Virus record (IMG/VR): IMGVR_UViG_2667527953_000001 | DNA length: 11,140 nucleotides | Direction: 5' to 3' (one strand) | Origin: a virus | Taxonomy: Monodnaviria; Loebvirae; Hofneiviricota; Faserviricetes; Tubulavirales | Shown here: positions 397-992 of the stretch, one piece after another | Layout of the letters: each line of letters begins with the position of its first letter | How positions within the stretch are numbered: position 1 is the stretch's first letter | The notes under the pieces: generated by a model | The model's input: only the letters and a program-made list of their open reading frames with translations | What the model was told of the DNA's origin: nothing | The model's database searches: none | Program-made: the position numbers and the translations under genes

Positions 397-992
397 CACT
401 CAAACTTTTTTGACCTGTAACAGAATAACCATATCCGTGCGGCTCTTCTCGTCAGACTTCTGACTCCAGCTCTTTGGCAGAAATGATAATCCTGTGTTGG
501 CCTGCGAATCCTTGTTTTCTGCCAGACCACCCAGCGCAAGTTCAGGCGGCAACGCATACTGACGCCTGAAAATATCTTCCTGAGCCAGCTGTATCGCTGC
601 ATTGAGCGGAATACGGTCAGCAAAAAAGGCCGGAGACGAGGCATGCACACACGCCGAAGTCAAAAAAAGAAATGCTGTCAGCAAGTTCAGGCGGCAACGC
701 ATACTGACGCCTGAAAATATCTTCCTGAGCCAGCTGTATCGCTGCATTGAGCGGAATACGGTCAACAAAAAAGGCCGGAGACGAGGCATGCACACACGCC
801 GAAGTCAAAAAAAGAAATGCTGTCAGCAAGTTCAGGCGGCAACGCATACTGACGCCTGAAAATATCTTCCTGAGCCAGCTGTATCGCTGCATTGAGCGGA
901 ATACGGTCAACAAAAAAGGCCGGAGACGAGGCATGCACACACGCCGAAGTCAAAAAAAGAAATGCTGTCAGTAAGTTAATCAATCTCATCAT
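397..992 (-). pseudogene. Secretin pIV gene remnant: N-terminal signal-peptide segment tandemly triplicated and fused to the C-terminal 45 codons; about 908 bp internal deletion
   Basis: Compared with the intact copy at 9227..10435: 254-535 matches 9081-9362 (C-terminus ...[45 protein letters not shown]) and 970-992 matches the ATGATG start. The region in between is three 145-bp units encoding [21 protein letters not shown]...ALPPELA; 145 is not a multiple of 3, so the frame shifts between units. Confidence 0.75.
539..973. repeat. 3 tandem copies of a 145-bp unit from the 5' part of the secretin gene
   Basis: Near-identical units start at about 539, 684 and 829; the intact copy has one unit at about 10269-10413. 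Unit junctions share the short homology gtcag(c/t)aagtt. Confidence 0.9.

Follow-up and report, generated by a model that had tools for sequence, protein, structure and literature searches.

The window, as we call the whole 11,140-nt stretch of DNA analysed here, is contig CDQU01001424.1 (reversed) of the draft E. coli assembly GCA_000936775.1. It contains about 1.2 inovirus genomes, the genome of the phage being roughly 8.8 kb. All large open reading frames (ORFs) of the window lie on the minus strand, in the gene order Rep, small genes, gIII, a gVI-size ORF, gI (Zot), 339-bp repeats and gIV. The following features frame the gIV locus.

248–350, minus strand: attP-like region downstream of gIV, with two inverted dif-like arms, at the boundary with a different inovirus on the left
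1031–2443, unstranded: 4.2 tandem copies of a 339-bp repeat, separating gI from the remodelled gIV; outside the gene and listed as context
2457–3668, minus strand: gI/Zot (PF05707)
4044–5408, minus strand: gIII-like coat protein with a Gly/Ser linker, Phage_Coat_A (PF05357)
6491–8590, minus strand: Rep of the P2-gpA rolling-circle type, a Phage_GPA HUH endonuclease (PF05840)
9227–10435, minus strand: gIV of the adjacent prophage copy, intact and 402 aa long, with the Secretin domain at residues 250–397

Complete E. coli genomes carry tandem copies of the same phage at the replication terminus (dif), between the ydeP side and hipA. In the window, the copy that bears the remodelled gIV, hereafter the remnant, has a different, unrelated inovirus on its left and a same-phage copy with an intact gIV on its right. 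The setting is a mixed multi-copy array of XerCD/dif-integrating filamentous prophages. Repeat search of the window pairs 252–535 with 9079–9362 at 99% and 826–1125 with 10269–10568 at 98%, and every gene but gIV in the remnant-bearing copy matches the lengths annotated in intact prophages. The phage collection holds no near match to the phage at the DNA level, and a distant-mode search of that collection returned only two ~175-bp matches (~70% identity), to two uncultivated gut inoviruses. No Rfam family was detected in the window at gathering thresholds, and we found no paper on this phage or on the remodelled gIV allele.

The leftmost 251 bases of the window belong to the different inovirus, for which the contiguous stretch is 35–345, and the 94 bases at 252–345 are common to both inoviruses and hold the two inverted dif-like arms. 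This ~94-bp attP region is all that the left inovirus and the studied phage share. The left inovirus, which has a replication-initiation-factor Rep, a DUF2523 protein and its own GspD-like secretin, is also present at the same locus elsewhere (L002, 4001–4313 and 12001–12311; L003, 14001–14311; compare window, 1–345), and the order of the two inoviruses varies between strains. For the viral strand of the attP-like region, read from 350 to 248, folding predicts a forked hairpin of −40.9 kcal/mol (z −11.5): a 14-bp stem that includes a XerC-like arm, a 6-nt bulge on one side only, and a second stem. In contigs L013 (2640–2680) and L004 (~11523), the phage arm CAGTGCGCATAATG continues as TATATTATGTTAAAT and then into the chromosome; at this phage–chromosome junction, CAGTGCGCATAATG plus TATATTATGTTAAAT reproduces exactly 27 of the 28 positions of E. 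coli dif. The attP(+) of CTXphi is likewise a forked hairpin of inverted dif-like arms with a one-sided bulge, the fold here being a predicted one, and by analogy the phage would integrate via a folded single strand, as CTXphi does.

Several further features of the phage were observed. Short direct repeats at 8517–8596 (GTGCAATTGTGCA..., 16-bp period, 2.2 copies), just upstream of the Rep gene, adjoin a divergent 62-aa ORF (8639–8827, plus strand) and resemble operators bound by a phage regulator; at this position, a different regulatory module (66-aa and 82-aa ORFs) is found in other copies of the phage. Within gIII, 39/78-bp repeats (4540–4791) encode a long (GGS/GSGS)n linker, and the length of gIII among related prophages is 425 versus 451 aa. 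The bases at 1860 and 10094, the latter inside the 'intact' gIV, are N in the deposited contig and a base in the window; single-base Ns also occur in contigs L004, L006 and L013. The single-base Ns suggest consensus calls over non-identical repeated copies.

The 339-bp repeats also precede the intact gIV, in at least 2 copies (10474–11140), and number 1–4 in other assemblies; there are none in the related prophage L003. In every 339-bp unit, the first ~70 nt match, at ~91% identity, a segment of 3,392 plasmids, for the most part small, mobilizable and ColE1-like, and the whole unit is present in several copies on a plasmid of Citrobacter youngae and on one of Proteus mirabilis. The ~70-nt segment resembles the stretch of pBR322 next to ori that is described as an assembly site for the PriA/n' primosome, and the array may be a complementary-strand origin.

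Structure and coding content of the remodelled gIV

The protein encoded by the intact gIV matches the Pfam Secretin family PF00263 over residues 250–397 (E 9e-25, 87.6 bits) and the f1 pIV structure 7OFH over residues 147–380 (E 2.2e-15), bearing out the assignment of the locus to a secretin gene in an earlier note on this DNA. The alignment to 7OFH passes through the LLGGL motif, the end point of the deletion described below. The parental gIV lies downstream of gI (Zot), in keeping with inovirus gene order, and its product is ~26% identical to f1 pIV and 44% identical to secretins of uncultivated gut inoviruses, its nearest phage relatives. The components of the remodelled gene, and their counterparts in the intact copy, are as follows.

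400–992, minus strand: remodelled gIV, with the native start at 992, three 145-bp units and the native stop at 400–402 (repeat search and comparison)
826–970, minus strand: unit 1, promoter-proximal, identical to unit 2
681–825, minus strand: unit 2 (base-by-base comparison)
536–680, minus strand: unit 3, adjoining the deletion junction; carries T>C (Val>Ala), a last-unit marker in every assembly examined
535–536, minus strand: deletion junction, where the counterparts of 9362 and 10269 meet, blunt and in frame
762–992, minus strand: 76-aa ORF from the native ATG (WP_072048653.1), with the signal peptide, 35 native residues and a 20-aa frameshifted tail
617–847, minus strand: second 76-aa ORF, from the internal ATG of unit 1 (MRCRLN...)
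400–702, minus strand: 100-aa ORF, residues 8–56 fused to 359–402 (MRCRLN...), an exact match to WP_044696899.1
9363–10268, minus strand: 906-bp segment (residues 57–358) missing from the remodelled copy (base-by-base comparison)
10269–10413, minus strand: single-copy counterpart of the 145-bp unit, with AACTTAC as its upstream flank and AACTTGC at its end

The deletion corresponds to 9363–10268 of the intact copy, i.e., 906 bp or 302 codons, and is in frame. The in-frame character proposed in the earlier note is thus retained, while its size of ~908 bp and its ends at 9362..10269 are revised; the joining of ALPPELA in frame to LGGLAENK is confirmed by base-by-base comparison. The deletion takes the rest of N0, N3 and ~110 of the ~150 Secretin-domain residues, and the remodelled copy therefore provides no export channel. 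The remodelled gene cannot encode a secretin and falls outside PF00263. Furthermore, a Pfam search (E ≤ 0.01) returned no family for the 131-aa reading of 400–795 or for the 76-aa ORF. With 302 of 402 residues missing, the remnant would not be expected to form a multimeric channel in the outer membrane.

By Tandem Repeats Finder, 536–977 contains 3.0 copies of a unit with a 145-bp period (99% matches, score 870). The units are equal-length, head-to-tail copies that differ from one another by 0–1 base: unit 3 (536–680) differs from units 1 and 2 at one base, and all three units differ from intact 10269–10413 at two bases. The unit begins 22 nt past the A of the native ATG and spans codons 8–56, thus comprising most of the signal peptide and 35 mature residues without the start codon, which narrows the previous description of a unit covering the signal peptide and the first 40 residues.

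Because 145 is not a multiple of 3, the reading frames of successive units are offset, as had been noted, and the product of the native start is only 76 aa long: translation runs from the ATG at 992 through unit 1, passes out of frame into unit 2 and meets a stop at 762. Restoration of the frame by the three units was considered and rejected; the extra 290 nt leave a remainder of 2 on division by 3, and the shifted frames hold stops. In the shifted frame of each unit, ATG-CGT-TGC-CGC-CTG-AAC-TTG is located just before the unit boundary, and this internal ATG therefore gives rise to the ORFs starting at 847 (76 aa) and 702 (100 aa). The 100-aa ORF begins MRCRLNLL..., versus MMRLINLL... in the native protein, and shows by inspection an n-h-c signal-peptide pattern ending VHA/SS, followed by 35 native residues and the last 44 residues of the secretin. 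The mini-protein of about 100 aa that the earlier note had derived from the last unit is thus present as an ORF, but it starts at a fortuitous ATG of the preceding unit, out of frame there, and is unreachable from the native start.

An AGG sits 7 nt upstream of the internal ATGs (702 and 847). Both the internal ATG and the AGG are already present, out of frame, in the intact gIV, and are therefore not adaptations. A promoter and terminator scan of 200–1400 found nothing beyond shuffle expectation. The 76-aa and 100-aa ORFs are most likely by-products, and the proteins that RefSeq lists as hypothetical under WP_044696899.1 and WP_072048653.1 represent pieces of a broken secretin gene.

Junctions, recurrence and genomic neighbours

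The deletion junction is blunt: CCTGAACTTGC is followed directly by GCTGGGTGG, and the junction shares no base with the flanks in the intact gene. The duplication junction, in which CCTGAACTTGC is followed by TGACAGC, lies between the imperfect repeats TTAACTTAC and TGAACTTGC (7/9), with an exact overlap of only 1 nt (the final C) at the crossover. Short homologies had been said to be shared at the junctions; this applies, loosely, to the duplication and not to the deletion. Because the deletion junction lacks homology, simple slippage could account for the repeat and for its expansion, whereas it does not explain the deletion, and the replication slippage suggested in the earlier note is retained for the former alone. 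On the viral strand, the deletion junction and both duplication junctions have the identical left end ...CCTGAACTTGC, and the deletion breakpoint and the boundary of the 145-bp unit coincide to the nucleotide. Two independent random events would rarely coincide in this way; the allele may have originated in one complex event, or at a hotspot, rather than by deletion and then slippage.

The exact 100-aa product is encoded on 14 contigs. Ten contigs, from 9 assemblies, were inspected, and all ten have the same deletion junction, the same duplication junction and the last-unit T>C. The comparison with other isolates proposed earlier thus places both junctions in at least 9 draft E. coli assemblies; this support comes from fragmented draft assemblies with single-base Ns, apparently of one sequencing project. 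Neither junction was found in any of 5,426 complete (long-read) E. coli genomes, and a search with a degenerate junction pattern gave no hit in JGI metagenomes or in the genomes representing other species. Around 9362, 10269 and 10413, the longest identical run is one of 5 bases (AACTT), at the duplication junction; at the deletion junction there is none. Neither junction lies within a shared sequence of k-mer length, and because the joined regions share no such sequence, a k-mer misjoin is ruled out for the junctions. We take both novel junctions as real.

The number of units differs between draft contigs, with 2 in L008, 3 in eight contigs including the window, and 4 in L006. This spread could be true copy-number variation or could stem from differing resolution by the assemblers of a repeat longer than the reads. 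Accordingly, the three copies noted earlier are confirmed for the window, while 'triplication' as a property of the allele is insecure because the unit count is 2, 3 or 4. A single-unit deletion allele that starts with the native MMRLIN is present in the protein collection (P0004), and is either the ancestral allele or a collapsed assembly. In contig L010 (262–406), the first 145-bp unit carries two SNPs of the intact gIV copy of the window, which points either to gene conversion between copies or to a chimeric assembly path. In GCA_000941435.1, the assembly of L010, the remnant is found on two contigs with different neighbours.

The neighbours of the remnant vary among the contigs. Specifically, the remnant is followed by the other inovirus in the window, L009 and L012, by dif and the chromosome in L013, by the same phage with one regulatory variant in L007, L010 and L011, and by the same phage with a second regulatory variant in L004, L006 and L008. 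The remnant lies upstream of a copy with intact gIV in L004, and the remnant copy is terminal at dif in L013. The upstream gI and gIII variants also differ among the carriers (gI, 400 versus 403 aa; gIII, 425 versus 451 aa). These differences would fit an allele that has moved, through array recombination or in the form of a helper-dependent phage; they would equally fit contigs that are chimeras formed across shared repeats.

In the same phage family, gIV has also been deleted independently, in a second allele that at least 16 contigs carry and that directly adjoins the ydeP flank of the chromosome. In this allele (L024, 5579–5800; also L025–L027), a point 190 nt into the 339-bp repeat is joined to approximately codon 275, with ~6 nt of overlap, which is equivalent to joining ~2254 to 9611 of the window, and a 130-aa C-terminal gIV fragment is left (P0009). 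Since this second allele arose independently, gIV loss is recurrent in these prophages; together, the two alleles suggest that inoviruses of E. coli repeatedly become domesticated or helper-dependent by losing the secretin.

Interpretation and relation to known systems

It is extremely improbable that the deletion, the units or both are absent from the genome and result from short-read misresolution of repeated prophage copies. Such an artefact would be in keeping with very fragmented drafts (contig numbers above 1,400–2,600) that contain single-base Ns, including those at 1860 and 10094, with junctions that appear in no complete genome, with unit numbers of 2, 3 or 4 across assemblies, with a first unit in L010 that carries intact-copy SNPs as a chimeric path would give, and with a single-unit P0004 that could be a collapsed assembly. 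However, the joined sequences are without a common k-mer, graph assemblers need reads for such joins, and the identical junctions occur in at least 9 assemblies together with the linked, diagnostic last-unit SNP. An artefact is thus largely excluded for the junctions, and doubt is left for the unit count and the long-range neighbours. We also consider it highly improbable that the 100-aa fusion is an expressed, exported and functional mini-protein acting, for example, by tuning or interfering with the assembly of full-length secretin, or in superinfection. The ORF is open, has the signal-peptide pattern and an AGG 7 nt before its ATG, and is exactly conserved on 14 contigs; furthermore, the deletion is in frame, and the single-unit database form (P0004) would use the native start. 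But an in-frame deletion is expected by chance in 1 case in 3, the native start is uncoupled from the 100-aa ORF in the multi-unit alleles, and the internal ATG and AGG pre-exist in the intact gene and hence did not evolve for the purpose. Moreover, the ORF has no family match, and the identity among the carriers is too high for selection to be read from it. A homology search for other mini-secretin fusions yielded only fragments at contig edges and another allele, deleted at its 5' end; an independent fusion of N- and C-terminal parts was not among them.

Two further readings concern how the allele arose and whether it spreads. Aberrant cutting and joining by Rep (gpA family), or hairpin stalling, is very unlikely to have made the rearrangements in place of ordinary slippage. 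A site-specific break would explain ...AACTTGC on the left side of all three novel junctions, a similar heptamer (AACTTAC) stands before the duplication partner, and the phage Rep is a Phage_GPA HUH endonuclease; the nick site of the phiX174 A protein contains AACTTG. In addition, the inverted repeat CCAGCG-N15-CGCTGG of the intact gene has the break within its 5' arm, and the CGCTGG at the junction would allow the loss of a 21-nt hairpin plus an 885-nt deletion between GCTGG repeats. Against a site-specific break, the CCAGCG-N15-CGCTGG hairpin is no stabler than shuffled sequences (z −1.2), AACTT[AG]C occurs on the viral strand of the window only at the gIV sites and has no origin-like counterpart, and the second gIV deletion allele has other breakpoints, with microhomology of ~6 nt. 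The idea of a Rep nick site was set aside, the motif being all that speaks for it and being confined in the window to gIV, and the hairpin at the common breakpoint, although present, is retained as a weak idea only. It is also unlikely that the allele is a helper-dependent, transmissible phage derivative, exported via co-resident pIV and spreading between arrays and strains. The other phage genes of the remnant copy are intact, the allele has four different downstream neighbours and different upstream gI/gIII variants, and its array position differs between L004 and L013; secretins act in trans, as is established for gIV of Ff phages. However, these contexts may be assembly chimeras or recombination within one clonal array, all carriers are seemingly from one project, and no virion or extrachromosomal junction sequence was found, either in the phage collection (no match) or in the metagenome scan (none). 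An extended form, in which a transmissible 'cheater' is exported by co-resident pIV and re-integrates at dif, the 100-aa remnant modulates the helper secretin, and AACTTGC marks a hotspot directed by Rep or by structure, is decidedly unlikely; if true, the cheater reading would explain the presence of the same allele at different array positions, with different neighbours, in different isolates.

The remodelled gene is probably a genuine gIV pseudogene in one member of the array, produced by an illegitimate in-frame deletion and a 145-bp duplication that is now a variable-number repeat, and with a defect that is tolerated. An in-frame deletion of 906 bp removed residues 57–358; in the sequence of events that we infer, a 145-bp segment ending exactly at the deletion breakpoint would have been duplicated between AACTTAC and AACTTGC. 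The repeat would then have been expanded and contracted, by slippage or unequal exchange, to 2–4 units. The defect may be tolerated in that the adjacent copy supplies secretin in trans; alternatively, secretin loss may cost the lysogen nothing or may even benefit it. The deletion, the repeat, the reading frames, the loss of the domain and the recurrence are observed directly; the order of events, expansion by slippage, trans-complementation and lack of function of the small ORFs are inferences.

A pseudogene of this kind is ordinary prophage decay with a tandem repeat, a familiar event and not a new system, and matters little alone. It does provide a documented case in which one copy of a dif-integrated inovirus array has lost its export gene and the neighbouring copy has retained it, and in which a 145-bp repeat of coding sequence appears to behave as a variable-number locus. 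In addition, the junction specifically marks a group of E. coli isolates of diarrhoeal type.

Compared with pIV of the Ff phages (f1/fd/M13), the intact copy shares the Secretin domain and the place after gI/Zot, whereas the remodelled copy keeps 100 of 402 residues and has no detectable domain. The remnant-bearing copy resembles Ff miniphages and defective interfering genomes in combining an internal deletion with a local duplication, and it would likewise need a helper to provide a morphogenesis function. Ff miniphages, however, lose most genes and keep or duplicate the origin, whereas here only gIV is affected, the duplicated 145 bp are gIV coding sequence, and the element has been seen only as a prophage. 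Identity with an Ff-type miniphage was rejected, all other genes of the remnant copy being full length. With variable-number tandem repeats generated by slipped-strand mispairing or unequal exchange, the locus shares perfect head-to-tail units around a fixed flanking junction, their apparent number being 2–4 in different draft assemblies; it differs in that the founding duplication has only an imperfect 7/9 end repeat and in that one boundary is a blunt deletion junction.

In organisation, the array resembles the dif arrays of CTXphi with RS1, of YpfPhi/CUS-1 and of UPphi, in which copies are likewise arranged head to tail and different inoviruses stand side by side; the studied phage differs in having a P2-gpA-type Rep and its own secretin. 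The study of UPphi notes one prophage whose gene III contains a premature stop and which would have to rely on a co-resident phage (PMC7307601). Set beside these CTXphi, YpfPhi and UPphi arrays, the defective copy described here is presumably carried by the co-resident one.
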